Positions 282 to 53,318 of a stretch of DNA of 53,631 bases are shown piece after piece. Below the pieces are notes generated by a model that was given only the letters and a program-made list of their open reading frames with translations, was not told the origin of the DNA and searched no databases. The position numbers and the translations under genes were made by a program. The stretch's first letter is position 1, and each line of letters opens with the position of its first letter. Source of the DNA: Candidatus Ancillula kalotermitis (GTDB lineage Bacteria > Actinomycetota > Actinomycetes > Actinomycetales > Bifidobacteriaceae); assembly GCA_031273495.1 (NCBI GenBank), contig JAISRT010000041.1:1-53631 (forward strand), given 5' to 3'.

Positions 282-290
282 TGCTATACT
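282..290 (+). promoter_or_regulatory. Extended -10 box TGCTATACT upstream of the GT2 gene
   Basis: The 6-nt spacer GATGAA is followed by ATA 297, which is in frame with the GT2 ORF. Confidence 0.6.
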
Positions 291-377
291 GATGAAATAG
301 GTATATTAACATTATTCGACTATCTGCTCATTGTTATTGGGCTGTTTGGGTTCTGCTACCAATTTTTCTGCATTATC

Positions 378-1565: not shown

Positions 1566-3156
1566 GAGCATAGCGATTGTAGGGATGCCGGCGAGTGGTA
1601 AGTCCAGAGTGGGTGTCGCACTTGCGGACTTGTTAAACTTTAGGCTTCTCGATCTAGACATGGCAATAGAAGAGGCGCAGGGCATGTCAATTAGCCAGAT
1701 ATTTCAGCGCCACGGCGAGGAACACTTCCGAAAGGTGGAAACTGCGCATCTGGAAGCCGCACTCAGCCAGAAAGGGTGTGTCATCTCGTTGGGCGGCGGT
1801 GTGCTTGAGTCGCGGGCAAACAGGAGTGCACTGCGCAAGTTTAGGGTAGCAGGTGGCTTGGTCGTGTATATAGAAACTGATGCAGAACTTGCAAAGTCAA
1901 GGATTTCCAAAAAGGACACTAGGCCCATTTTCGTGCAGAACGGGTTGGACTACTGGGATGTGTTGCTCAAGAGAAGGAGCAAGCATTTTATACAGAATGC
2001 CGACATCAGGATTAAGACATCGCTAGGCGGGGGGGAGTTCCTTGAGGCAGAAGTGGTAGCAGAAAAAATTTTTGCGCAACTTAATACTCGTCGAGTGTTG
2101 GTCGAGCGTGATAATGACATTAAGTATAGCATAACTATTGGCAGATGTTTAATCGAGCAGATTCCGACAAGGATTACACCCGACGCAAGTGTCGCTGTTT
2201 TGTACACCGAGTCCGTGGCAGACCATAAGAGCAGTGTCGTCGCCGAACTCAAAAAGCGAGGCCTCCGAGTGTCTGAATGTGTAGTGGCTGACGCCGAGAA
2301 CGGGAAGACCGTTGCAGAATATGAGCGCACGCTAGATTTTCTTGCCGAAAGAGGGTTCACGCGCTCTGACTTCATAATTGCAATTGGTGGCGGTGCACTG
2401 ACCGATATGGCTGGGTTAGTTGCCGCGAGTTTCTTGCGCGGCGTTCAATTCATCAATGTGCCGACGTCAACCCTGGCAGCAGTCGACGCGTCCACTGGTG
2501 GAAAAACGGGCATTAACCTCAGGGCGGGCAAAAACCTCTGCGGCGCGTTTTATGAACCTGAGGCTGTGTATATTGACCTCGACTTCTTCAAGACACTCCA
2601 CGCACGCGAGTTCAACGAGGGGCTTGGTGAGGCTCTCAAAATGGGACTACTATTTGATCAAGAACTGGTGGGATTGCTATTTGACGAGCACACTCGAAAC
2701 GCTAAGTTGGAGGAAATAGTCTACAGGTGTGTCAAGCTGAAGGCGGAAGTCGTTTCGAAAGACCTCTACGATTCGGGGCTCCGTGAGTTCCTTAATTACG
2801 GGCACACTTTCGCCCACGCGGTTGAAAAACTTGAACATTTTAAGATTCGCCACGGTGAAGCGGTAGCATTGGGCTGTATTTTCGCTGCACATTTGGCATT
2901 CAAGCTCGGTATGCTGACTGAAGACGACGTGAAATTGCATTATAGGCTAGTTAAAGCAGTGGGACTACCGTATTCTTGGGGGGCAGGTGTGTCCTTTGAC
3001 GACGTCTTGAACGCTATGCGGCTCGACAAGAAAAATAAGTCTGGAACACGACGATTTGTGCTACTAGATGGGCTACAGAACCCAAGGATTGTCGAGGATC
3101 CCGAACTGCACGCGATGAGTTACGCTTTCGAAATGGTCCAGCGTGCTATACTTTAG
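1549..3156 (+). CDS. aroB: Bifunctional shikimate kinase / 3-dehydroquinate synthase (AroK-AroB fusion)
   Basis: 535 aa. N-terminal P-loop IAIVGMPASGKS is shikimate-kinase-like. The C-terminal part has DHQS motifs (GGGALTDMAG, DASTGGKTGIN, HGEAVALG). Overlaps the GT2 stop by 17 nt. Confidence 0.85.
   Translation: MSMATESIAIVGMPASGKSRVGVALADLLNFRLLDLDMAIEEAQGMSISQIFQRHGEEHFRKVETAHLEAALSQKGCVISLGGGVLESRANRSALRKFRVAGGLVVYIETDAELAKSRISKKDTRPIFVQNGLDYWDVLLKRRSKHFIQNADIRIKTSLGGGEFLEAEVVAEKIFAQLNTRRVLVERDNDIKYSITIGRCLIEQIPTRITPDASVAVLYTESVADHKSSVVAELKKRGLRVSECVVADAENGKTVAEYERTLDFLAERGFTRSDFIIAIGGGALTDMAGLVAASFLRGVQFINVPTSTLAAVDASTGGKTGINLRAGKNLCGAFYEPEAVYIDLDFFKTLHAREFNEGLGEALKMGLLFDQELVGLLFDEHTRNAKLEEIVYRCVKLKAEVVSKDLYDSGLREFLNYGHTFAHAVEKLEHFKIRHGEAVALGCIFAAHLAFKLGMLTEDDVKLHYRLVKAVGLPYSWGAGVSFDDVLNAMRLDKKNKSGTRRFVLLDGLQNPRIVEDPELHAMSYAFEMVQRAIL
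3144..3152 (+). promoter_or_regulatory. Extended -10 box TGCTATACT inside the aroKB 3' end, ahead of leaderless mfd
   Basis: A 7-nt spacer is followed by ATG 3160. No SD. Confidence 0.6.
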
Positions 3157-3159
3157 AAA

Positions 3160-5622
3160 ATGTCTCCTCTAGAGCTACTTAACCAGATTGAGGTTGATGA
3201 CGAAGAGTACTTTGACCAAGTGCTGAGGGTCGGTATGCAGAAAAATTTCGATGTTAGCAGTCGAGTCGTTGCAGTGCGCCAAATTCGCCCTTTGCTAGTC
3301 TTATCCTTGAGCAAGTTCCGACAAGTCTGGAGCCTGACGCAAATCAGGAAGAAACTGGTGTTGAAGCGTTTTCAAGTGGGGTCTGAGCAGCAGAAAGGCA
3401 CTTTAACGGGGTCGGCTGGTAGTAGTGTCAACATTGCAGTGGATCTAGAGTTCCCGATGCACTTACTGTTGGCCGCACTAGTGGATTCTGGTTATGTGAG
3501 GTCTAGTGCAGTCGAAGAAGCAGGGGAGTTCCTGACGCTAGGCGATTCGGTGATACTATTTCCACCAGAGAACGCAGTGCCAATTAAGATCGAGTATTTT
3601 GGTGATGTCATTGAGTCCATTTATTCATTTGACACCGCGTCTGGGGTGAAAGTGCGTGACTATGAGGAGTACTCAATTGAGAGATGTGGACATACTGCTG
3701 CTGAAGGCTTGGACGAGTTGTATGACTGGTCTGCCACCGATTTTGTAGATGAACAGTGGGACTTCCAGGGAAAAAATGCTATAGTGCTGATTCTGGATCC
3801 CGAGATGATAAGTGACGCGCTCAATGATCAGTATTTGGCACTCATAACGCAGTTGCACAAAAAGGACATACCGAGTGTCAGTGTTAATGGTTTTGGTGAG
3901 TATTTTGATACCGTTCAGGTCAAGTCGATAGAACTATTGTTAGAGTTCCAGAAGTGCTTGGCGAACTCGAGCCTACAGGGAGCACTTGATAATTTTCTTG
4001 GCGTTAACGAGCAACGAAAGCGTGAGAAGCCCAAACGCCCTCCGCTAGACCTAAAAACACTTGAAGTTGGTGACTTTCTGGTGCATGATTATCATGGAAT
4101 CGGTAAGTTCCTAGGCACTGAGCAGCATGAAAATGAGTATGGCGATCTTGAGGAGTATCTAGTCGTGGAATATGCGTCAGGTTTGCGGAAAAAAGATGCC
4201 CCACCAGACTTCTTATTCGTGCCATCGAATAGCACAGTGCACTTGAGTAAATACATCGGCTCAACGACACCCAAATTGTCGCGGTTTGGCGGTGAGGATT
4301 TCGCTAAAGTTAAGGCACTAACTAGGCGTCACGCCAAGGATATCGCGAAGAACTTGATTAAAATCTATTCGGAGAGAGTGTCAAGGCCTGGGATAGCGTT
4401 CCCCAGAAATGGTGCCGAACTACACGAACTTGAAAAGAGCTTCAAATACGAGTTGACTCCTGACCAGGAAGCTGCAATTACTGATGTCACGCGAGATATG
4501 GAGTCCGATTTCCCAATGGACAGGCTAGTCTGCGGTGATGTCGGGTTCGGTAAGACTGAAGTTGCGATACGTGCGGCATACAAAGCAGTGATTTCAGGGT
4601 ATCAGGTCGCAATAGTCGCACCAACCACAATTTTAACCTCTCAGCACTACGACACGTTTACTCAGAGGCTGGCGAAACTTGGTGTGAATGTGAAATTGCT
4701 CAACCGCTTCGTCTCTGCTGCAGAACGGAAAAGCACTCTTGTAGGCGTGAAAAATGGTGAAGTTGACATAATAATAGGCACCCACGCATTGTTCAATAAG
4801 AGTATCGAGTACAAAAACTTGGGGTTGCTGATTATTGACGAGGAACAACGCTTCGGGACGCTGCACAAAGAGCTGATTAAAGAGCAGAACTCGAATGTTG
4901 ATGTACTTGCGCTTTCTGCGACGCCAATACCTAGAACTTTGGAGATGGCGCTGTCGGGGGTGCGGGACATATCAACCATTTCTACACCTCCGAAGAATCG
5001 CCGACCGATAATAACCAATGTGCTCAAAATGAATGACCAGCTGATATTGGATGCCATAATGCGGGAGGTTCTGCGTGGCGGGCAAGTCTTCCTTTTGCAC
5101 AATAACACCCACTCGATTAGGCGTAGACTGCTAGCCCTACAGACTGCGTTGCCCAATGTTCGCTTTGACCTTGCTCACGGGAAAATGACTGAAATGAAGC
5201 TCGACACGATAATCGATGCGTTTTATAAGAAGCATATTGACGTGCTCGTCTGCACAACTATTGTGGAAACTGGGCTCGACATCAGTAATGCCAACACTCT
5301 AATAATTGAAAATGCCCAGGATTTCGGGCTCACTCAACTCCACCAGTTACGCGGTAGGATTGGGCGTTCTGAGGTTCAAGGATACGCCTACTTCTTTTAC
5401 GGCGACAAAATGCTCTTCAGTGCGCAGGCGGCAAAACGGCTGGAAATTGTGCAAAACCTGAATGAACTTGGCTCAGGTGTTGCAATCGCCATGAAAGACC
5501 TCCAGATGCGCGGCGCGGGTAACTTCCTTGGGTCTGAGCAGTCGGGTCATATATCAGGCGTTGGCTACAATCTTTACATCGAGATGATAAATGATGCTGT
5601 CGAGCGCATGCGACACGCCTAA
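3160..5622 (+). CDS. mfd: Transcription-repair coupling factor, compact form
   Basis: 820 aa. RNAP-interaction-like segment (GDFLVHDYHGIGKF), helicase motifs GDVGFGKTEVA and DEEQRFG, TRG-like end LQMRGAGNFLGSEQSGH. Shorter than the usual ~1150-1200 aa. Confidence 0.85.
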   Translation: MSPLELLNQIEVDDEEYFDQVLRVGMQKNFDVSSRVVAVRQIRPLLVLSLSKFRQVWSLTQIRKKLVLKRFQVGSEQQKGTLTGSAGSSVNIAVDLEFPMHLLLAALVDSGYVRSSAVEEAGEFLTLGDSVILFPPENAVPIKIEYFGDVIESIYSFDTASGVKVRDYEEYSIERCGHTAAEGLDELYDWSATDFVDEQWDFQGKNAIVLILDPEMISDALNDQYLALITQLHKKDIPSVSVNGFGEYFDTVQVKSIELLLEFQKCLANSSLQGALDNFLGVNEQRKREKPKRPPLDLKTLEVGDFLVHDYHGIGKFLGTEQHENEYGDLEEYLVVEYASGLRKKDAPPDFLFVPSNSTVHLSKYIGSTTPKLSRFGGEDFAKVKALTRRHAKDIAKNLIKIYSERVSRPGIAFPRNGAELHELEKSFKYELTPDQEAAITDVTRDMESDFPMDRLVCGDVGFGKTEVAIRAAYKAVISGYQVAIVAPTTILTSQHYDTFTQRLAKLGVNVKLLNRFVSAAERKSTLVGVKNGEVDIIIGTHALFNKSIEYKNLGLLIIDEEQRFGTLHKELIKEQNSNVDVLALSATPIPRTLEMALSGVRDISTISTPPKNRRPIITNVLKMNDQLILDAIMREVLRGGQVFLLHNNTHSIRRRLLALQTALPNVRFDLAHGKMTEMKLDTIIDAFYKKHIDVLVCTTIVETGLDISNANTLIIENAQDFGLTQLHQLRGRIGRSEVQGYAYFFYGDKMLFSAQAAKRLEIVQNLNELGSGVAIAMKDLQMRGAGNFLGSEQSGHISGVGYNLYIEMINDAVERMRHA

Positions 5623-7415
5623 ATATACTCCTTAGGGTCCAGGATGAACTTAACCTTATTGCTGAAACGCTTGATGAACGAGAAGTTACGGAGAAACTGC
5701 ACTAGTTTTGCTAAATTGCGTCCATCCTTTACTGACGACTTGATGATGTAACACTCGAGATTGTCAATTGACTGGTTGATGCTCCAATAGCGCTGATGAT
5801 AGGTTTCTCCGAGCGGAAATGGACCTTGAATGTCTAATTTAACATCGGGAAGAAACTCTGGAATTTGTGCTATACTCTGATTGAGGGCATCACGTGTCCC
5901 GATTATGCTAACCACCCTTGAAAACGGTGGCAGTGAGTTTATTTTGCGCGATTTTAGTTCCCTTAGCATCGCAGTTTCAGGATCAAGACGTTGGAGTGCA
6001 TCGCGGTATTTGTCTCCACCATTATTGATGAGCATTATGCCACCTTCGGGTTTAACTAGCGAAGCAGCATAAAACCACTTCTGGAGGGTGTTACTCGTGC
6101 CATCGAAGGAGTTGACCGCGTCCCAGTAGCCCGAATCCATTATAATCAGCAGTCCGTAGCCAGTTTTCGGTATTGGTTCCGCACCTGGGGTAGACACCAC
6201 AATCTGCTTTTCGTCGCTGAGTGTCCGAATTATGCCGCACTGCGCGGTAAGTGAACTAGAATTAATTAGAATGTTCGGGAACGCCACGCCGAGTTCACGC
6301 TTGATTTCCTCGGTGCCTATTCTGACTGAGCGCAGTTTCAAATTGTTGCACTGAGGGCATTTATAAAGTGGGAACTCCTTTGCGCAGTTGATGCAAGTCA
6401 AGATACCGTGCTCATTTGTGACTAGGGCAGACTCGCATATTTCACATGCCACTATTTCCCTGCAGTTGGCGCAAGCCAGTAGATTTTTGAAGCCTCTTCG
6501 TGGGTAGAGTAGCAGGACTGATTCGTCTTGTTCGAGTGTCTTGCGTATCGCGGAAAATGACGTTGAGGGGAGCTTTTGCCCATATTCTGGCGTGACTTGC
6601 GTGATACTCTTCTTAATTTTGAAAAGTTCATCTGCCACTGGGGTCTCTGCAGTCAAGAAGCCCATTTTGAGCAGGCGTAGAACCGAAAACGAGTGGACAT
6701 AATTGGTAAAATAGAGCTCGTCGGGGTCGCGGAGTAGGCATATTTCACGCGCATTGATGTATGGTGACTGCTCTTCTTTGAAATTAGGGTTACCGTCGTC
6801 GAAAATTACAACTACGTTCGGGGTAAACGGCGCTAGTGCGGCTGACCGCGTACCAATTACAATGCTTGCCGCACTGGTCAGAACTCTCAAATAGTTTCGA
6901 TACCGCTCGCTAGGTTTTAGTGTTGAAGTTATCGCTGCTATATGTTTCCGCGCTTCGGGGAGTTGCTCTTCTAGGCTTTGGGACAGCAGGTTTAATTGGT
7001 GTTCGTCAGGCATCAAGACTAGGCAGTTTTCACCCCGTTCAAGGCACTGCTCAATCTTCTCGGCTGCAAACTTTATATGCTCGTTAAGCTTCGGGAGTAA
7101 CGTCACTCCCACTTTTTTCTTCTCAACCTCAGTGCTGTTGTCGCTGCGCTGTCGGCTAGTCTGCGTTTGTGGGGTAGCGTTCTCGCTGAAGAGTGCCTCA
7201 GTCCGCGCTGCCCTTTTCGGGATTATGAACGCTAACAACTCCTGTATATTTGTGCCGTAATACTGGGCAATCTCGCGGTAAAGTTCAAGCAGTTCACGCG
7301 TCAGTACTGGAATCGTGGACAGCATTTTTCCTATGGGTTTGAGCTTGCCCGCGAATTCGCTCTCAGTAGAGATACCGATAATCACCCCTAGAAGGTTTCT
7401 GCCATGGAAAGGCAC
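5619..7415 (-). CDS. priA: Primosomal protein N' (PriA); minimum extent, probably continues to 7538
   Basis: 598 aa from the first canonical start (GTG 7415). Cys-rich zinc region (CANCREIVACEICES...CINC...CPQC). The 41 upstream in-frame codons (to 7538) encode a PriA-like N-terminus without a canonical start. Its stop overlaps the mfd stop by 4 nt. Confidence 0.8.
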   Translation of the reverse strand: MPFHGRNLLGVIIGISTESEFAGKLKPIGKMLSTIPVLTRELLELYREIAQYYGTNIQELLAFIIPKRAARTEALFSENATPQTQTSRQRSDNSTEVEKKKVGVTLLPKLNEHIKFAAEKIEQCLERGENCLVLMPDEHQLNLLSQSLEEQLPEARKHIAAITSTLKPSERYRNYLRVLTSAASIVIGTRSAALAPFTPNVVVIFDDGNPNFKEEQSPYINAREICLLRDPDELYFTNYVHSFSVLRLLKMGFLTAETPVADELFKIKKSITQVTPEYGQKLPSTSFSAIRKTLEQDESVLLLYPRRGFKNLLACANCREIVACEICESALVTNEHGILTCINCAKEFPLYKCPQCNNLKLRSVRIGTEEIKRELGVAFPNILINSSSLTAQCGIIRTLSDEKQIVVSTPGAEPIPKTGYGLLIIMDSGYWDAVNSFDGTSNTLQKWFYAASLVKPEGGIMLINNGGDKYRDALQRLDPETAMLRELKSRKINSLPPFSRVVSIIGTRDALNQSIAQIPEFLPDVKLDIQGPFPLGETYHQRYWSINQSIDNLECYIIKSSVKDGRNLAKLVQFLRNFSFIKRFSNKVKFILDPKEYI

Positions 7416-7544
7416 TTGAACCAGGAAGCCGAAATACTCTTGAGCGTCATTCTCCAGGCAGTCTGGCAGTAAAAAGTCAAACGACTCCCCAAGATGAAGG
7501 GGAGCGCCGATAACTGAAACCTGTGCAACTGCCGTGATTTAACA

Positions 7545-7553
7545 ATTATAGCA
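7545..7553 (-). promoter_or_regulatory. Extended -10 box TGCTATAAT (minus strand) for priA
   Basis: The spacer TGTTAA contains the in-frame stop TAA. It is followed by ATC at 7538-7536, the first codon of the open PriA frame. Confidence 0.65.
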
Positions 7554-7569
7554 CCTCCGAACGAAAATG

Positions 7570-7578
7570 CGCTATACT
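7570..7578 (+). promoter_or_regulatory. -10 box CGCTATACT for tRNA-Arg (and dgt)
   Basis: TATACT ends 8 nt before the mature tRNA 5' end (7587). Sits back-to-back with the priA box 16 bp away. Confidence 0.6.
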
Positions 7579-7586
7579 AGAGATAT

Positions 7587-7659
7587 GCCCTCGTAGCTCA
7601 GTGGATAGAGTGACGGTTTCCGGTACCGCAGGTCGCAGGTTCGACTCCTGTCGAGGGCA
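7587..7659 (+). tRNA. tRNA-Arg (anticodon CCG)
   Basis: Hand-folded 73-nt cloverleaf: acceptor GCCCTCG/CGAGGGC, D arm GCTC..GAGT, anticodon loop TTCCGGT, T arm GCAGG-TTCGACT-CCTGT, discriminator A. CCA is not encoded. Confidence 0.85.
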
Positions 7660-7660
7660 C

Positions 7661-8911
7661 TTGTCGAAAATTGAGTATTACTCTGCAGCTGATGCAGCGC
7701 GTTTTTCTGGTAATGAAAAGCATAATTCTGAACGCACTGATTTTGCTAGGGACCGCGCGCGCATCGTCCATTCTTCAGCATTGCGACGGCTTGGCGCCAA
7801 GACTCAGGTTATGGTTGCAGGCTTCGATGACTTTGTGCGAACGCGCCTAACACACTCCCTTGAAGTCGCTCAAATCGGGCGTGATATAGCATCTAGCCTA
7901 GGCCTCAGCCAAGATGTAGTTGAAGCAGCGTGCCTTGCACACGACCTCGGACACCCACCGTTCGGGCATTTTGGTGAATCGCTACTGGATGAAGTTGCCA
8001 AAGATATAGGTGGGTTTGAAGGGAATGCGCAGACTTTCAGGATTCTCACGCGCCTGGAGCCCAAAATCTTCAACCAAGACGCTGTGCCTTCTGGGTTAAA
8101 CTTGACGCGCGCAACACTTGACGCAATTCTGAAGTATCCCTGGGGTGCAGGTGAACTCAAAGACGTGAAGAAGTTCAACTATTACAGGGATGACGCGCCT
8201 GTGTTTGATTGGGTCAGGCAATATACACCAGAGAACAAGGTGCGCAAGAAGTGCATTGAGGCGCAAGTGATGGATCTGGCGGACGATATTAGCTACGCAA
8301 CGCATGATGTTCAGGACGGACTAGTTTCAGGCGGTTTTGCTGGTAACACCCTAAAAGTGCTTGAAGACCGCGGGCGCTGGAATTATATGCTTGAAGTGGC
8401 AGCGCAATGGTTTGGGAACGAGTTTACCGGAATAGACTTCGACTCTGCGAGGTATCGGCTCAAGGGGCTTGGTGTTTTCGACCTGGAGTATACTGGCACC
8501 TATATTAGCGCGGCGAAGTTGAGCAACCATATTTCAACACTTATCGGGCGTTTCGTGTCGAGTGCGATTTTAGCGACGAAGAATTACGCAGAGTCACTGG
8601 AGCTCGACGGGAACTTGACGAGATATAATGCTGACCTTATTTTGCCTACTGAACAGCGTGATGAGATTAAGCTTTTGATGGCGTTTTCTGCCGCATTTGT
8701 CATGTTGCCCAAGCGCGAGGGGAGAGAAGAAAAGGATGAGGCTGACATAATCGAGCGCCTGGTCGAGCATTTTTCAGTAGAGGACAACTTGGAGCCACAG
8801 TTTCTTGAAGTAGCGCGGCGTGCCGAAAATAGTGCCGAAAAGTTGCGCAACGTTGTTGACCAGATAGCGTCTTTGACAGATTTTAGCGCTAGAAAGATCG
8901 CTGGAAGGTAA
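7661..8911 (+). CDS. dgt: dGTP triphosphohydrolase-like HD-domain protein
   Basis: HD motif (LTHSLEVAQIGR...AHDLGHPPFGH) and N-terminal FARDRARIVHSSALRRLGAKTQV. The tracked ORF (7601) begins inside the tRNA. The first in-frame start after the tRNA is TTG 7661. Confidence 0.8.
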   Translation: MSKIEYYSAADAARFSGNEKHNSERTDFARDRARIVHSSALRRLGAKTQVMVAGFDDFVRTRLTHSLEVAQIGRDIASSLGLSQDVVEAACLAHDLGHPPFGHFGESLLDEVAKDIGGFEGNAQTFRILTRLEPKIFNQDAVPSGLNLTRATLDAILKYPWGAGELKDVKKFNYYRDDAPVFDWVRQYTPENKVRKKCIEAQVMDLADDISYATHDVQDGLVSGGFAGNTLKVLEDRGRWNYMLEVAAQWFGNEFTGIDFDSARYRLKGLGVFDLEYTGTYISAAKLSNHISTLIGRFVSSAILATKNYAESLELDGNLTRYNADLILPTEQRDEIKLLMAFSAAFVMLPKREGREEKDEADIIERLVEHFSVEDNLEPQFLEVARRAENSAEKLRNVVDQIASLTDFSARKIAGR

Positions 8912-9031: not shown

Positions 9032-9105
9032 CGGGCATTAGCGCAGCTTGGTAGCGCGTTCGACTGGGGGTCGAGAGGTCGCAAGTTCAAATCTTGTATG
9101 CCCGA
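9032..9105 (+). tRNA. tRNA-Pro (anticodon GGG)
   Basis: Hand-folded 74-nt cloverleaf: acceptor CGGGCAT/ATGCCCG, D arm GCGC..GCGC, anticodon loop CTGGGGG, T arm GCAAG-TTCAAAT-CTTGT, discriminator A. CCA is not encoded. Confidence 0.85.
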
Positions 9106-9106
9106 C

Positions 9107-10420
9107 GTGAATTTGCGTAGATTTTTGCACTCAGTTCGGAACAAGCCTAATGGTGTTCTGTTGTTGAGCATTATACTGGTCGGACTGATTGCACGAGCAC
9201 CAACTTCGGTCTATGCACCAGTCGCGGCGTATCTTGAGCCACATTTCGGAGTTGACCACGCCACTTTCGGGTGGCTCTCAGGCATACCAGTCTTCTGTTT
9301 CGCGCTGTTCACTCCGTTGGCGTCACGTTTTATAGCGAAACGGGGCCTTGATGACGCGTTCTTGACTGGGATAATTATCACAACACTTGGCGTCGCACTG
9401 CGCCTCGTTGACAATTTTCTAGTCTTGTTCATCGCTACGATTATTATAGGTGCTGGGATAGCGTTTATGAACACTACGGTCCCACTAATGGCAGCGCGCT
9501 CATTCCCGAAGAAGTTCGCTATTGTGACTGGCACCTACTCGTCATTCTGCAACCTTGGCGTGGTGTTTGCGTTCTCGTTCACGGCACCTTTTGCTGATAT
9601 AATCGGGTGGCAGCTCTCAATGTTCATGTGGTTCTTTATGTGCGTCCTCAATATACTGGTTTTCGTAATATACATCTTCAGAAGGAAGCGCGGTAAGTCC
9701 CGCAAGCAGTTCAGGGTCGACGGGGAAGACTGGTCGCAAATCAAGAAACTGCGCCAGATTTCGAAGAAGGCAACTGAGTTTGATGCTGAGAGTTATGTTC
9801 AGCCCGCTGGAGTGTCCGAGACTGTTGAGGAAGCCCGTAACTCACGTCAAATCCACCGACAAGCGTTCACCTACGGAATATGCTTGCTCTTCATCTGTCA
9901 GTGTGTCGCGTATTTCACGTTCGCCGCCTGGTTGCCCAAGATTTTGCAAGACACTCTCAATATGGACGCTTCTACTGCGGGTATTGCGAGTTCAATGTTT
10001 CCACTAATGGGGATCTTCGGTTCGATTGCGGTGACACCATTTTTGAAGCGTGTTGGTGTGCTACCTTCATTCATAGGTATAGCACTCGGCTGGTTGATGT
10101 TGCCCCTCGGACTCCTCTTCCTACCAGAACTGTGGGCAGTATGGTGCGCCGCTGCAGGGATATGTCAAGCAGCGAATTATGTCACGATGTTCGACGCGAT
10201 AAAGAAGTGGTCCAAAACGAGTGAAGAGACTAGGAAATTATCGTCCGCTACGCAGGTTTCCGCGTATATCTGCGCTGGCATTTCGCCTTCGCTTTTCGGT
10301 GCGATTCACGATGCAACACTCCAGTGGCCGATTGTAATCAGTTTACTCGGTGTGACGCTCTTCATAATGCTCCTATCGGGATTCTTGACATATAGAACAA
10401 TAAAGGAGGGGCGGGGATGA
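9107..10420 (+). CDS. MFS transporter (about 12 TM segments)
   Basis: Hydrophobic multi-helix ORF with a central basic loop ([10 protein letters not shown]). The tracked ORF (9017) runs through tRNA-Pro. In-frame starts after the tRNA are GTG 9107 and TTG 9113. Confidence 0.75.
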
Positions 10421-12609: not shown

Positions 12610-13218
12610 ATGAGTAACGCGAAGGATGAAATCGGTTATCTAGATTTCGAGTTGCCAAAAGATATTGCAGTGCACACTGGCATTTCGGAAACTAAATCTG
12701 CGGCATTGGTGACTTCTATTAATGATATTGGCGTTCTAGCAGCACTTTGCGTGGTGAACGAAATTGAGGCAGTAATTATGCCTAGCGGTGTTTTCGGCAC
12801 AGTAGCATTTCTCCATGAGCTTAAAGATGGTGCACCCGAAAAAGCGGTCACAAAAATTACTCTAGCAGTCGATGGTCTTGACGCAGTTCTTGTTCAGTAT
12901 CGGTTCGAACGAATGGAGGCCAAACTGTATACAAAAGGTGAATTCGTTGAAGATTTGGTGCCCACTGTGGTTGTCGGCAATTTTTCTGAAGTCGCAGAAG
13001 ATGCTCTAATTGGCGAGATTGACCTCTACGACCTCATGAAAACTGGTAGTGCAAAGGTTGATGCCAACCACGCCTTGCGCAATCTGCCGTCTAACTTTGT
13101 GCCGAAGAAATATCAGCGCGGTGCGGAACGAACGTCAGGTAATTTCAACGCGTTCCCGACCTTCGCGATGCCAAAAGATGTCGCGCTCCAGACATTGAAG
13201 AGATTCGAGAATGTGTGA
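12610..13218 (+). CDS. Hypothetical acidic cytoplasmic protein
   Basis: 202-aa ORF with an AGGAGG SD 7 nt upstream. No motif I recognise. Its stop overlaps the GTG of the next gene. Confidence 0.6.
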   Translation: MSNAKDEIGYLDFELPKDIAVHTGISETKSAALVTSINDIGVLAALCVVNEIEAVIMPSGVFGTVAFLHELKDGAPEKAVTKITLAVDGLDAVLVQYRFERMEAKLYTKGEFVEDLVPTVVVGNFSEVAEDALIGEIDLYDLMKTGSAKVDANHALRNLPSNFVPKKYQRGAERTSGNFNAFPTFAMPKDVALQTLKRFENV

Positions 13219-22225: not shown

Positions 22226-22234
22226 TGCTACACT
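22226..22234 (+). promoter_or_regulatory. Extended -10 box TGCTACACT for the ABC-permease-PadR operon
   Basis: The predicted TSS (~22241) lies in the first palindromic operator. The 5' UTR is 334 nt, of which 232 nt is a repeat array. Confidence 0.6.
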
Positions 22235-22239
22235 AGTGG

Positions 22240-22289
22240 TATACACCGAGTGTATAGTGGTGGCACTGTGTCTATTCACTCAGTGTATA
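22240..22289 (+). promoter_or_regulatory. Two tandem palindromic operator candidates (TATACAC-N3-GTGTATA; TATTCAC-N3-GTGTATA)
   Basis: 22240-22256 is a perfect 7+3+7 palindrome and 22273-22289 has one mismatch. Centres are 33 bp apart. The first overlaps the predicted TSS. Candidate PadR sites. Confidence 0.5.
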
Positions 22290-22314
22290 GTCGGGCGGTC
22301 ACACAGGAAAAGGG

Positions 22315-22546
22315 TACTTGTGTCATCTTTGGCTTTATGCCGAAGATCCATAATGGTATGACAGTACGCGTGGATCCTCGGGACAAGCCCAAGGATGACA
22401 TGGGACAGACAAGCCCAAGGATGACATGGGACAGACAAGCCCGCGCCTGCCCTTGGCTTTATGCCGAGGGATGACATGGGACAGACAAGCCCAAGGATGA
22501 CATGGGACAGACAAGCCCAGGGGATGACAGTAGTGTGTGCGCCAAA
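22315..22546. repeat. Repeat cluster C inside the ABC operon 5' UTR
   Basis: Contains hairpin ATCTTTGGC-TTTAT-GCCGAAGAT (22325-22347), 26-bp units GACAAGCCCAAGGATGACATGGGACA (x4) and one long module with CCCTTGGCTTTATGCCGAGGG. Flanked by GCGGTCACACA(G/A)GAAA(A)GGG at 22295 and 22547. Confidence 0.9.
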
Positions 22547-25789: not shown

Positions 25790-25895
25790 TGTCATTCTTG
25801 GGCTTGTCCGTCCCATGTCATTCTTGGGCTTGTCCGTCCCATGTCATTCTTGGGCTTGTCCGTCCCATGTCATTCTTGGGCTTGTCCCGAGAATC
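25790..25895. repeat. Repeat cluster D part 1: 26-bp tandem repeat x4 ending in the terminal hairpin
   Basis: TGTCATTCTTGGGCTTGTCCGTCCCA starts at 25790, 25816, 25842 and 25868. Hairpin ATTCTTGGG-CTTGT-CCCGAGAAT at 25872-25894. Confidence 0.95.
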
Positions 25896-25900
25896 CAGTT

Positions 25901-26170
25901 GGTGTCGCTTACTTATGGGTCCTCGGCATAAAGCCAAGGATGACAATAGGGGTGGTGTCGCTTACTTATGGATCCTCGGCATAAAGCCAAGGATGACAAT
26001 AGGGGTGGTGTCGCTTACGTATGGATCCTCGGCATAAAGCCAAGGATGACAATAGGGTTGGTGTCGCTTACTTATGGATCCTCGGCATAAAGCCAAGGAT
26101 GACAATAAGGGTGGTGTACAAGGATGACAATAAGGGTGGTGTCCAAGGATGACAGTAGTAGTGGGAACGA
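25901..26170. repeat. Repeat cluster D part 2: 53-bp tandem repeat x4 plus degenerate short units
   Basis: GGTGTCGCTTACTTATGGATCCTCGGCATAAAGCCAAGGATGACAATAGGGGT starts at 25901, 25954, 26007 and 26060. Two truncated units follow, to ~26170. Confidence 0.95.
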
Positions 26171-26190: not shown

Positions 26191-27648
26191 GTGCGAATGT
26201 GCTACAATACTGATATTAAGGTTGAGGCTTACGAGCTAGCATTGGGCAACGTTGACGCGTTGGATGTTTTTTTGCGTCTCCGAAGTGTTGATTCGCATTG
26301 CTTTATATTGGAGTCTCTTGAGGGCGCACACTGGAGTTTTATCGGCTGGTACCCCATTCTCGAAATCACACTCCGCAATGGACATTTCTTGCAGAAGAAC
26401 TTAAAGAGTGGCGTGATGGAAGTTGACATTCAGACTGACGCACCCAAACAGTTGCTCCAACAAGTGCTTGACGATTTTCACTGCACGCCATCTGATCTGG
26501 AAAGTTTAACAAATATCTCCGAGCTCCCTCCGTTCACGGGCGGTCTGATGGGGTATTTTAGCTACGACTATATTAAGTATGCCGAGCCGACTTTGCGGCC
26601 ATTTTTCGAGCGGATGAAGGACACTGAGCGGTTTAATGACTTCGACTTGATGCTGTTTAACAATGTTATCGCGATTAACAACAACACGCAGAAGATGGTG
26701 ATTATCCACAACTCGTATGATGACACACCGTTCGATTATAAGCAGGTCTACAATACTGTGACATCTGCCCCGAAGTATAGTATGCAGGCATTAGAGATTC
26801 TTGAGGACCCCGATTTCATGTTCAACGAGCAGCAGTGGGGTGAAATTGTAGACAAAGCGCAGGAGCACATACAGCAAGGCGACATCTTCCAGGTAGTGCT
26901 CTCGAATCGGATGCAAGCGCGCGCTGAGGGAACACTTTTTGATGCCTACCGCGAGATGCGCGCCAAGAATCCGTCACCTTATATGTTTTACCTCAACTCT
27001 GACGAGCTCGAGATTGCGGGGTGCTCTCCGGAAACGCTGACGTCTTTGAGGCGTGACGGGCGTGAGGGGAACATGGTGGCTCGGACATTCCCACTTGCGG
27101 GGACGAGGCCACGCGGAGCGACCGCAGAAGAGGATGCACGTATTGAAGAGGAGTTGTTGAGCGACGAGAAAGAGCGTGCTGAGCACAATATGTTGGTTGA
27201 CTTGGGGCGTAATGACATCGGCAGAATTAGTAAAATCGGGTCAGTTGAGGTCGAGGACTATATGTCAGTATCAAGGTTTTCACATGTCATGCACATTGGC
27301 TCGAAGGTGAAGGGCATTCTTGAGGACGGACTTTCGGCACTTGACGTTATTGAGTCAGTTTTGCCCGCTGGAACACTCTCTGGTGCACCCAAAATCCGCG
27401 CTTGTGAGATTATTGACTGCCTGGAAGGCGACAGTCGCGGGATTTACGGTGGGTGTCTCGGTTATCTTGGTCTGGACGGTCAGATGGATATGTGTATAAC
27501 AATTCGGACAATCTACAAAAAGGGTGGCTATGTCTACGCGAGAAGTGGTGCCGGCATCGTTATGGATTCTAACGCGCGTTCAGAATACGTCGAGACAATC
27601 AATAAGATTAAGTCAAGCACTTTGGCTCTCGGGTTGGTGGTCAAATGA
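26191..27648 (+). CDS. Chorismate-utilising enzyme, anthranilate/aminodeoxychorismate synthase component I (TrpE/PabB family)
   Basis: 485 aa with motifs GDIFQVVLS, SPSPYMFY, GTLSGAPK and GGCLGY. The start is uncertain: GTG 26191 and ATG 26197 overlap the promoter box at 26200-26208. ATT 26215 or TTG 26242 are more plausible. Confidence 0.8.
   Translation: MRMCYNTDIKVEAYELALGNVDALDVFLRLRSVDSHCFILESLEGAHWSFIGWYPILEITLRNGHFLQKNLKSGVMEVDIQTDAPKQLLQQVLDDFHCTPSDLESLTNISELPPFTGGLMGYFSYDYIKYAEPTLRPFFERMKDTERFNDFDLMLFNNVIAINNNTQKMVIIHNSYDDTPFDYKQVYNTVTSAPKYSMQALEILEDPDFMFNEQQWGEIVDKAQEHIQQGDIFQVVLSNRMQARAEGTLFDAYREMRAKNPSPYMFYLNSDELEIAGCSPETLTSLRRDGREGNMVARTFPLAGTRPRGATAEEDARIEEELLSDEKERAEHNMLVDLGRNDIGRISKIGSVEVEDYMSVSRFSHVMHIGSKVKGILEDGLSALDVIESVLPAGTLSGAPKIRACEIIDCLEGDSRGIYGGCLGYLGLDGQMDMCITIRTIYKKGGYVYARSGAGIVMDSNARSEYVETINKIKSSTLALGLVVK
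26200..26208 (+). promoter_or_regulatory. Extended -10 box TGCTACAAT for the trpE/pabB-like gene
   Basis: Spacer ACTGAT, then in-frame ATT 26215. Confidence 0.6.
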
Positions 27649-33520: not shown

Positions 33521-33650
33521 GTGTGTCATCTCCTGACACACCGCACCCCTCATGTCATCCCAGCGTAGCGTGGCATAAAGCCAAGGGCAGGCGCGGGCTT
33601 GTCCGCCTCATGTCATCCTTGGGCTTGTCCCGAGGATCCATACGCCGTGT
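33521..33650. repeat. Repeat cluster E
   Basis: Contains palindrome GTGTCA-TCTCC-TGACAC, a long module with GCATAAAGCCAAGGGCAGGCGCGGGCTTGTC, and terminal hairpin ATCCTTGGG-CTTGT-CCCGAGGAT (33615-33637). Lies between convergent fusA and glnA. Confidence 0.9.
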
Positions 33651-42783: not shown

Positions 42784-42792
42784 AGTATAGCA
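42784..42792 (-). promoter_or_regulatory. Extended -10 box TGCTATACT (minus strand), leaderless tmk
   Basis: Spacer AGTGGA, then ATG at 42777-42775. Confidence 0.7.
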
Positions 42793-52650: not shown

Positions 52651-52860
52651 TGTCATCCACGCACGCACACTGCCCCCTCATGTCATCCTTGGGCTTGTCT
52701 GTCCCATGTCATCCCTCGGCATAAAGCCAAGGGCAGGCGCGGGCTTGACGTCCCATGTCATCCCTCGGCATAAAGCCAAGGGCAAGCGCGGGCTTGACGT
52801 CCCATGTCATCCCTCGGCATAAAGCCAAGGGCAGGCGCGGGCTTGTCCCGAGGATCCATA
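52651..52860. repeat. Repeat cluster F including a 49-bp tandem repeat x3 (52703-52849)
   Basis: CCCATGTCATCCCTCGGCATAAAGCCAAGGGCAGGCGCGGGCTTGACGT starts at 52703, 52752 and 52801. Directly follows the secY stop. Confidence 0.95.
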
Positions 52861-53174: not shown

Positions 53175-53318
53175 CATGTCATCCTTGGGCTTGTCCCGAG
53201 GATCCATCGCGCGCACTCCGCCATTGTGGACCCTCGGCATAAAGCCAAGGGTGACACTAGAGAGCGCGGGTGTGTTCAATAGATCCAGCGTAGCGTGGCA
53301 TAAAGCCAAGGGTGACAG
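53175..53318. repeat. Repeat cluster G
   Basis: Contains terminal hairpin ATCCTTGGG-CTTGT-CCCGAGGAT (53181-53203), two GGCATAAAGCCAAGGGTGACA modules and one CCAGCGTAGCGTGG module. Confidence 0.9.

Follow-up and report, generated by a model that had tools for sequence, protein, structure and literature searches.

The priA gene in contig JAISRT010000041.1 of Candidatus Ancillula kalotermitis (53,631 nt; the whole stretch is called the window below) encodes a conserved N-terminus for which the reading frame offers no canonical start codon. On balance, we favour the interpretation that the priA mRNA is leaderless, or nearly so, and is translated inefficiently from a 5'-terminal AUC. Judged by the predicted transcription start and by homology, a leaderless gene with a first codon other than RUG (AUG or GUG) is the best-supported reading of this locus. 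The features involved are listed with their coordinates in Table 1.

Read directly on the minus strand from 7560 downwards, the start region is tcGGAGG-TGCTATAAT-TGT-TAA-ATC-ACG-GCA-GTT-GCA-CAG-GTT. A7538, the first base of the proposed initiation codon, is the 7th nucleotide after the last T of the extended -10 box TGCTATAAT. A previous interpretation of this DNA from its letters alone (the sequence-only reading) had placed the ATC at this distance from the box, directly after an in-frame TAA, and had stated that GTG 7415 is the first ATG/GTG/TTG of the priA frame and that the frame is open for 41 codons further. Inspection of the sequence confirmed these positions as well as the residues of the extension, whose translation is ITAVAQVSVIGAPLHLGESFDFLLPDCLENDAQEYFGFLVQ. 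With initiation at ATC 7538 the N-terminal peptide is expected to be (f)M/I-TAVAQVSVIGAPLHLGE. The frame cannot be prolonged upstream since it contains the stops TAA 7541 and TAG 7574 and is bounded by a divergent tRNA-Arg gene from 7587; an upstream extension of the frame and readthrough of a stop were both ruled out on these grounds, the tRNA being 48 nt away.

The box upstream of priA belongs to a family. Motifs were counted on both strands of the 53.6-kb window and compared with Markov-1 simulations. TGCTA[TC]A[AC]T was matched 28 times, where 1.5 ± 1.1 matches were expected (about 19-fold enrichment), for instance at 3144, 15444, 28264, 37799 and 43483 on the plus strand and at 42792 and 7553 on the minus strand. 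Box-N6-RTG was found 8 times (0.0 expected) and box-N6-ATH also 8 times (0.17 expected); six bases past the box there is an A in 20/28 cases, and AT in 15/28. For 12 of the 28 boxes the predicted start falls on the opening base of a gene, 8 stand before leadered genes, tRNAs or unknown RNAs, 4 are intragenic in the sense and 4 in the antisense orientation. The sequence-only reading had compared priA with nine leaderless AUG/GUG genes of the same geometry, and this count was reproduced: nine boxes stand before the ATG or GTG with which a long gene begins, eight with a 6-nt spacer and one (mfd) with a 7-nt spacer. By profile colinearity the leaderless RTG starts are true N-termini (FtsZ 13/16, Cmk 2/2, Tmk 1/5, RluB-like 5/3, GlgP, Mfd), and the Joint Genome Institute (JGI) and NCBI annotations agree on the starts of mfd and of the WhiB-like gene. 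Other boxes precede tRNA genes or short leaders with a clear Shine-Dalgarno sequence (glnA, fusA, gene at 12610), and the leadered genes of the window carry AGGAGG or AAAGGA.

Because the box and the 6-nt spacer are those of the leaderless RTG genes, we infer that the priA transcript begins AUCACGGCAG. Such a transcript has neither a 5' untranslated region (UTR) nor a Shine-Dalgarno sequence, homology to PriA running from codon 3 and the GGAGG lying upstream of the -10 box. The energy of the first 30 nt of priA (-0.7 kcal/mol) is within the range of the canonical leaderless genes in the window (0 to -2.9), the coding background being -3.75 ± 2.4. What priA does not share with these genes is the 5'-terminal AUG or GUG: its codon is ATC.

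The 41-codon extension is the real N-terminus of PriA. The sequence-only reading had recognized in it the N-terminal DNA-binding region, and this is borne out by the Pfam profile, by a hidden Markov model (HMM) of homologues and by structure prediction. With the extension, PF17764 (PriA_3primeBD) matched with 64 bits over profile positions 5-96; from GTG 7415 it matched with 44 bits over positions 31-96, i.e. the extension contributes 20 bits and 26 profile positions. Without the 41 codons the product lacks the FDY-type motif and the opening beta-strand of the 3'-DNA-binding domain (3'BD). An HMM built from 43 homologues alone scored 420.2 bits from ATC 7538, 414.5 from ATC 7511 and 393.4 from GTG 7415, and with this HMM the native first 9 residues beat 20/20 shuffles. 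The NCBIfam PriA models NF011453 and NF011452 (PRK14873) align from residue 3 of the window protein. In the alignment with the 43 homologues, I-T-A-V-A-Q-V-S-V-...-F-D-F-L-L-P of the window PriA faces the universal [PI]-[VI]-A-R-V-x-V-D-...-F-D-Y-L-V-P, and ATC 7538 (ITAVAQV) is aligned with Met1 of the homologues with short N-termini, P0015 (MAPVARI), P0055 (MSKIARV) and P0061 (MATYAKV). The alignment that the sequence-only reading had called for thus made the ATC colinear with Met1 of several homologues, and none of the 43 begins at the position of GTG 7415. In the AlphaFold2 model (overall predicted local distance difference test score, pLDDT, 88.5) residues 1-10 have a pLDDT of 90, residues 4-9 and 20-23 form strands and residues 26-35 a helix (pLDDT 83-93). 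The best Foldseek matches of the model were all PriA (6dcr, 8fak, 6dgd, 4nl4; E = 7e-38, TM-score 0.6-0.7).

The profile scores, the homologue alignment and the AlphaFold2 model all place the N-terminus of the domain upstream, so that priA does not have its natural start at GTG 7415. A truncated PriA of 598 aa from this codon, as called by JGI, would have the merit of using the first canonical start in the frame, and is nevertheless highly improbable: there is no Shine-Dalgarno sequence, the protein would lose two strands, the FDF pocket motif and one helix of the 3'BD at a cost of 20-27 bits, and 43/43 homologues extend further upstream. This start was rejected because it truncates the domain.

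NCBI made a different choice. Its protein P0361 (630 aa) begins with MGAPLHLGESFDF at ATC 7511-7509, codon 10 of the frame proposed here, which would turn the first 27 nt into an untranslated leader; neither public call equals ATC 7538. In its favour, ATC 7511 has a weak AGG 8 nt before it, and residue 13 is where the Pfam 3'BD match sets in. Still, we consider this start unlikely. It deletes beta-strand 4-9, which is present in every aligned homologue (V7 conserved in at least 90%), is predicted with a pLDDT of about 90 and is worth 5.7 bits; it has no real Shine-Dalgarno sequence, whereas the leadered genes of the window do (see above); and it offers no reason for the frame opening precisely at the predicted start, with a codon colinear with the Met1 of homologues. 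Moreover, in the second gene of this type, described next, NCBI picked the codon six nucleotides past the box. The missing canonical start has thus led to non-canonical start choices in the public record for both genes. The link between AUC or AUA and the leaderless promoter position is not made there, and the NCBI start of priA removes a conserved strand. Gene callers mis-annotate such genes: counting ATC 7538, priA now has three N-termini, and the JGI call cuts a domain.

All long open frames were screened for conserved N-termini lacking a start codon, and two first-in-operon genes passed: priA and a GT2 glycosyltransferase gene near the left end of the window. In the latter, ATA 297 comes 6 nt after a TGCTATACT box. 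A start at GTG 378, the first canonical codon, would truncate the conserved N-terminal transmembrane helix. Many 410-430-residue homologues found with phmmer are colinear from their own residues 3-9. ATA 297 is at the position of Met1, since Q22-F23-F24 have the same numbering in the homologues (N-termini MTTLQIINLAIMLAFFLCYSYQFFYI and METVKIINLIIAIIFTVCYSYQFFYI) and in the window protein (IGILTLFDYLLIVIGLFGFCYQFFCI); the peptide expected from this codon is M/I-GILTLF. NCBI starts the protein at ATA 297 (P0366, 422 aa), JGI at GTG 378. This second, independent case strengthens the idea of AUH (AUA, AUC or AUU) starts beyond what the sequence-only reading could offer. A possible third case is trpE, where a perfect TGCTACAAT box is followed after 6 nt by an in-frame ATT, at which the transcript is predicted to begin. 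The annotated ATG 26197 overlaps this box and has neither a Shine-Dalgarno sequence nor a -10 box of its own. ATT 26215 is ambiguous and was not counted as firm evidence: two canonical codons, ATG 26197 and GTG 26191, precede it in frame, and the family profile does not set in until some 15 residues into the protein.

The segment around the priA box suggests another explanation, namely an error of sequence or assembly, or a real one-base frameshift: the true codon might be ATG, or AAA 7540-7538 might be AA. In the latter case TTG 7544, placed behind GGAGG 7558-7554, would open M-L-I-T-A-V-A-Q-V, similar to MLPIARV of homologue P0053. The source of the contig is uncultured, and searches found neither an exact copy of the PriA protein on another contig nor a second assembly. 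Arguing the other way, no other promoter-like site was seen upstream on the priA strand, and TTG 7544, placed 3' of the -10 box but 5' of the predicted start, would be absent from the transcript of the sole recognizable promoter. None of the other genes of the window shows signs of a frameshift, an indel error is not likely in a homopolymer of 3 bases, and the GT2 gene would require a second, independent error. Taken together, these observations make an error or frameshift quite improbable. A programmed +1 frameshift of the prfB type from TTG 7544 was also considered and discarded: there is no slippery site, UAA does not allow re-pairing of a tRNA-Leu that sits on UUA (in TTG TTA AAT C), and the shift site is not followed by an in-frame stop.

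The window PriA is a member of the non-helicase actinobacterial branch. It matched NF011453, a full-length profile, with E = 2e-98 (below the curated cut-off), and its domain order is that of the actinobacterial family (PF17764 + PF27106; PRK14873) and of E. coli/K. pneumoniae PriA (4nl4, 6dgd, 6dcr, 8fak). Shared with known PriA proteins are a 3'BD that begins 2-3 residues past Met1, with a beta-strand and then the FDY motif, and a Cys-rich zinc-binding region in which all eight cysteines, in two sets of four, are kept (C356, C359, C365, C368, C382, C385, C394 and C397, all invariant columns). Unlike E. coli-type PriA, the window protein has no GK[ST] (Walker A) and no DE.H/D (DExH) motif, and these are likewise missing from the consensus of the actinobacterial homologues. 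Identity is 19-20% to the solved structures and about 30% to other actinobacterial PriAs. All 19 invariant columns (the 8 Cys included) and 64/84 highly conserved columns are retained.

These data bear on start-codon decay, i.e. the view that an ancestral leaderless ATG became ATC in a genome undergoing reduction and that priA is a young pseudogene, its frame intact, without useful translation. 'Candidatus Ancillula' are genome-reduced Bifidobacteriaceae living inside termite-gut flagellates, and the relatives have 10-26 pseudogenes per genome (PMC11707648). A leaderless AUC was essentially inactive in the bacteria in which it was tried (PMC4633059, PMC8459731), and the divergence of the window PriA (64/84 conserved columns) fits this view as well. 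On the other hand, priA looks maintained: neither a stop nor a frameshift interrupts the 639 codons, every invariant residue is present, substitutions are mostly conservative, and the 5' end is still unstructured like that of functional leaderless genes. In the GT2 gene, too, the one lesion is at this position of the start codon, and two third-base changes in start codons, a tiny mutational target, would point to tolerance rather than decay. It is very unlikely that two genes should decay unselected with the third base of the start codon as the sole visible lesion. For priA, we regard decay as fairly unlikely, if somewhat less so than the start at ATC 7511.

Several observations weigh against leaderless AUC initiation. 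The priA transcription start is a prediction, in which the consecutive A's 7540-7538 are all candidates, A7540 and A7539 being equally plausible, and in other bacteria 1-2 leader nucleotides already inhibit leaderless initiation. The ATC at the start of priA is not special in itself, because AT at the predicted +1/+2 is general for these promoters (see above), leadered ones included. GGAGG-N9-TTG would be a good ribosome-binding geometry and is a rare pattern, with 18 occurrences of GGAGG-N5-10-DTG in 107 kb. NCBI chose ATC 7511 and not ATC 7538. Among the actinobacterial-type sequences aligned, the window PriA diverges most, which is compatible with relaxed selection. No close priA orthologue was found by protein search (best match 30% identity), in GTDB genomes or in JGI metagenomes, and a synteny walk from the neighbouring dGTPase gene and EF-G in Ancillula-like relatives led to loci (GC 36-54%) that are not syntenic and contain no priA. 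In M. smegmatis leaderless initiation was supported by 'no other codon' besides ATG/GTG, with ATC as the negative control (PMC4633059), and in C. crescentus leaderless reporters with AUC, AUU or AUA showed a drastic loss of strength relative to AUG (PMC8459731).

As for these relatives, the habit of the TGCTATACT box was not seen in their loci. The EF-G of the window is 82-85% identical to that of 'Candidatus Ancillula' metagenome-assembled genomes and about 71% identical to that of Promicromonosporaceae and Cellulomonadaceae; less conserved proteins of the window are merely 53-55% identical to those of the 'Candidatus Ancillula' relatives.

With leaderless AUC initiation as the favoured reading, expression of priA can be envisaged as follows. 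Transcription would proceed from the extended -10 promoter TGCTATAAT, giving an mRNA with its 5' end at A7538 or at most 2 nt away, with no leader and no Shine-Dalgarno sequence, as in at least nine other genes of the window. Translation would start at the 5'-terminal AUC 7538-7536, a near-cognate codon whose first two bases can pair with the initiator tRNA. The product would be full-length PriA (639 aa) with its 3'BD intact, probably at a low level, which may suffice for a low-copy replication-restart protein. Alternative starts fare no better, GTG 7415 and ATC 7511 both being devoid of a Shine-Dalgarno sequence. In origin the AUC is most likely a leaderless ATG of an ancestor, altered at its third base in a way that the lineage tolerates, and the GT2 gene would be in the same state. 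The sequence-only reading had proposed a leaderless mRNA starting with AUC, and this is borne out in part: the real N-terminus, the lack of a canonical start, the colinearity with Met1 and the promoter geometry stand as observations; the start at A7538, the use of the AUC and the expression of the gene are conjectured from them. Going further, and tentatively, it is possible that the lineage has relaxed the rule by which leaderless initiation requires a 5'-terminal AUG or, in Actinobacteria, GUG (the AUG/GUG rule), and that initiation on AUC and AUA, perhaps also on AUU, at the 5' end is routine for its ribosomes, in the manner of mitochondria. This would concern 2-3 of the 12 leaderless-type genes in the window (priA, GT2 and possibly trpE) and many more genome-wide.

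Table 1. Positions of the priA start region, the parallel case (GT2), the possible third case (trpE) and the repeats in the window
Feature	Positions	Strand	Remarks
priA full reading frame	5619..7538	-	639 codons + stop (5621-5619); actinobacterial type
Proposed initiation codon ATC	7536..7538	-	also predicted transcription start; 6-nt spacer from box
In-frame TAA	7539..7541	-	immediately 5' of ATC; shuts frame upstream
Extended -10 box TGCTATAAT (TGn + TATAAT), priA promoter	7545..7553	-	perfect; member of motif TGCTAYAMT; read directly
41-codon N-terminal extension	7416..7538	-	beta-strand 4-9, FDF (residues 20-22) and helix 26-35 of the 3'BD
GTG, first canonical start in priA frame	7413..7415	-	JGI start (598 aa); no Shine-Dalgarno; would cut 3'BD
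Second in-frame ATC (codon 10)	7509..7511	-	NCBI protein start (630 aa, MGAPLHLGESFDF...; MGAPLHL...); no real Shine-Dalgarno
GGAGG (7558-7554), 9 nt, TTG (7544-7542)	7542..7558	-	TTG one base out of priA frame; read directly
tRNA-Arg(CCG)	7587..7660	+	divergent from priA; limits priA upstream region to 48 nt
TATACT, -10 box of tRNA-Arg	7573..7578	+	back to back with priA promoter; 22 bp between -10 boxes
GT2 box TGCTATACT (282-290), 6 nt, ATA (297-299)	282..299	+	gene 297-1565 (422 codons)
trpE box TGCTACAAT (26200-26208), 6 nt, ATT (26215-26217)	26200..26217	+	possible third case; ATT in frame
Tandem repeats	102-244, 22382-22529, 25790-26154, 33600-33645, 52691-52845, 53177-53206		

Some further features of the window were noted. 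Several of the boxes are accompanied by a TTAACA -35 element and by a recurrent downstream ACTGAT-AT element, and an antisense box at 5868-5876 (+) is directed into priA. The mfd gene (3160-5622, +), which has a leaderless ATG behind its 7-nt spacer, is convergent with priA, and its 3' end overlaps the priA stop codon; it encodes 820 aa, compared with roughly 1150-1200 aa in the matched Mfd structures. The transcript of the divergent tRNA-Arg is predicted to start just 2 nt 5' of the mature tRNA end. Two genes start directly at the 3' end of a tRNA (7587-7663 and 9032-9109, +): the tRNA-Arg ends at 7659/7660 and the dGTPase gene starts with TTG 7661, and the tRNA-Pro ends at 9105/9106 and a gene for an MFS transporter starts with GTG 9107, the annotated ATG 9098 overlapping the tRNA. 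By analogy with mitochondrial tRNA punctuation, 3' processing of the tRNAs could yield leaderless mRNAs.

A strong box, TGCTACACT, with a TTAACA -35 element (window 22226-22460, +) predicts a transcript start at 22241. The transcript contains a near-perfect hairpin (22239-22290) and continues into tandem repeats upstream of the gene at 22461; it could represent a small RNA or else a structured leader of some length. The tandem repeats, of 25/26 and 49-53 nt, are dispersed between genes and have a common core, GACAAGCCCAAGRATGACA, the arrays being often preceded by TGGATCCTCGG. When the repeat core was used to seek other contigs of the same organism, only unrelated contigs with a shared motif of about 30 nt were retrieved. 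Dozens of metagenome contigs unrelated to each other (GC 34-67%) contain this motif, GGATCCTCGGGACAAGCCCAAGGATGACA, in exact or near-exact form, at times as inverted pairs, and no Rfam family or paper matching it was found. An Rfam search of the window returned three tRNAs only, and in the repeat region nothing but a generic hairpin.

Bacterial initiation on AUU is familiar from the leadered genes infC and pcnB, and initiation from all 64 codons was reportedly measured in E. coli by Hecht in 2017. Leadered AUU, AUC and AUA starts resemble that of priA in being near-cognate AUH codons at which the initiator tRNA supports initiation at a low level; translation table 11 allows them, and NCBI applies them to priA. 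The leadered cases differ in that they rely on a Shine-Dalgarno sequence and, for infC, on autoregulation by IF3. The priA gene has neither, no Shine-Dalgarno sequence being present on its predicted transcript, and every aligned PriA homologue begins with M or V, canonical starts as called.

Closer relatives provide the second comparison. Leaderless genes in Mycobacterium tuberculosis are said to have been described by Cortes in 2013. In Bifidobacterium pseudolongum, of the same family as the organism studied here, about 15% of transcription starts are leaderless (PMC4782308). The actinobacterial leaderless genes (PMC4633059, PMC4782308) and those predicted in the window have in common a -10 box 6-7 nt from the start codon, the absence of a 5' UTR and of a Shine-Dalgarno sequence, an unstructured 5' end, and their occurrence in many genes per genome. 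They differ in the codon: for mycobacteria, Shell 2015 (PMC4633059) calls an ATG or GTG at the 5' end 'necessary and sufficient', whereas in the window ATC (priA) and ATA (GT2) stand at the predicted +1.

In this last respect mammalian mitochondria are the better parallel. Mouse mitochondria initiate on AUC, AUU and AUA of leaderless mRNAs (PMC8459731, PMC11775629), and mammalian mitochondria (PMC11775629; table in PMC8459731) share with what is predicted for the window leaderless mRNAs with an AUH first codon, and also starts abutting tRNAs, of which the window has two. In contrast, they have a specialised system, with a single tRNA-Met with f5C34, IF3mt and a different genetic code, whereas most leaderless genes of this bacterium begin with ATG. 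If leaderless AUC/AUA initiation holds for priA and the GT2 gene, these natural genes for conserved proteins would show that the AUG/GUG rule is not universal in bacteria, and would provide a bacterial counterpart of the mitochondrial AUH starts that is tractable by reporter.

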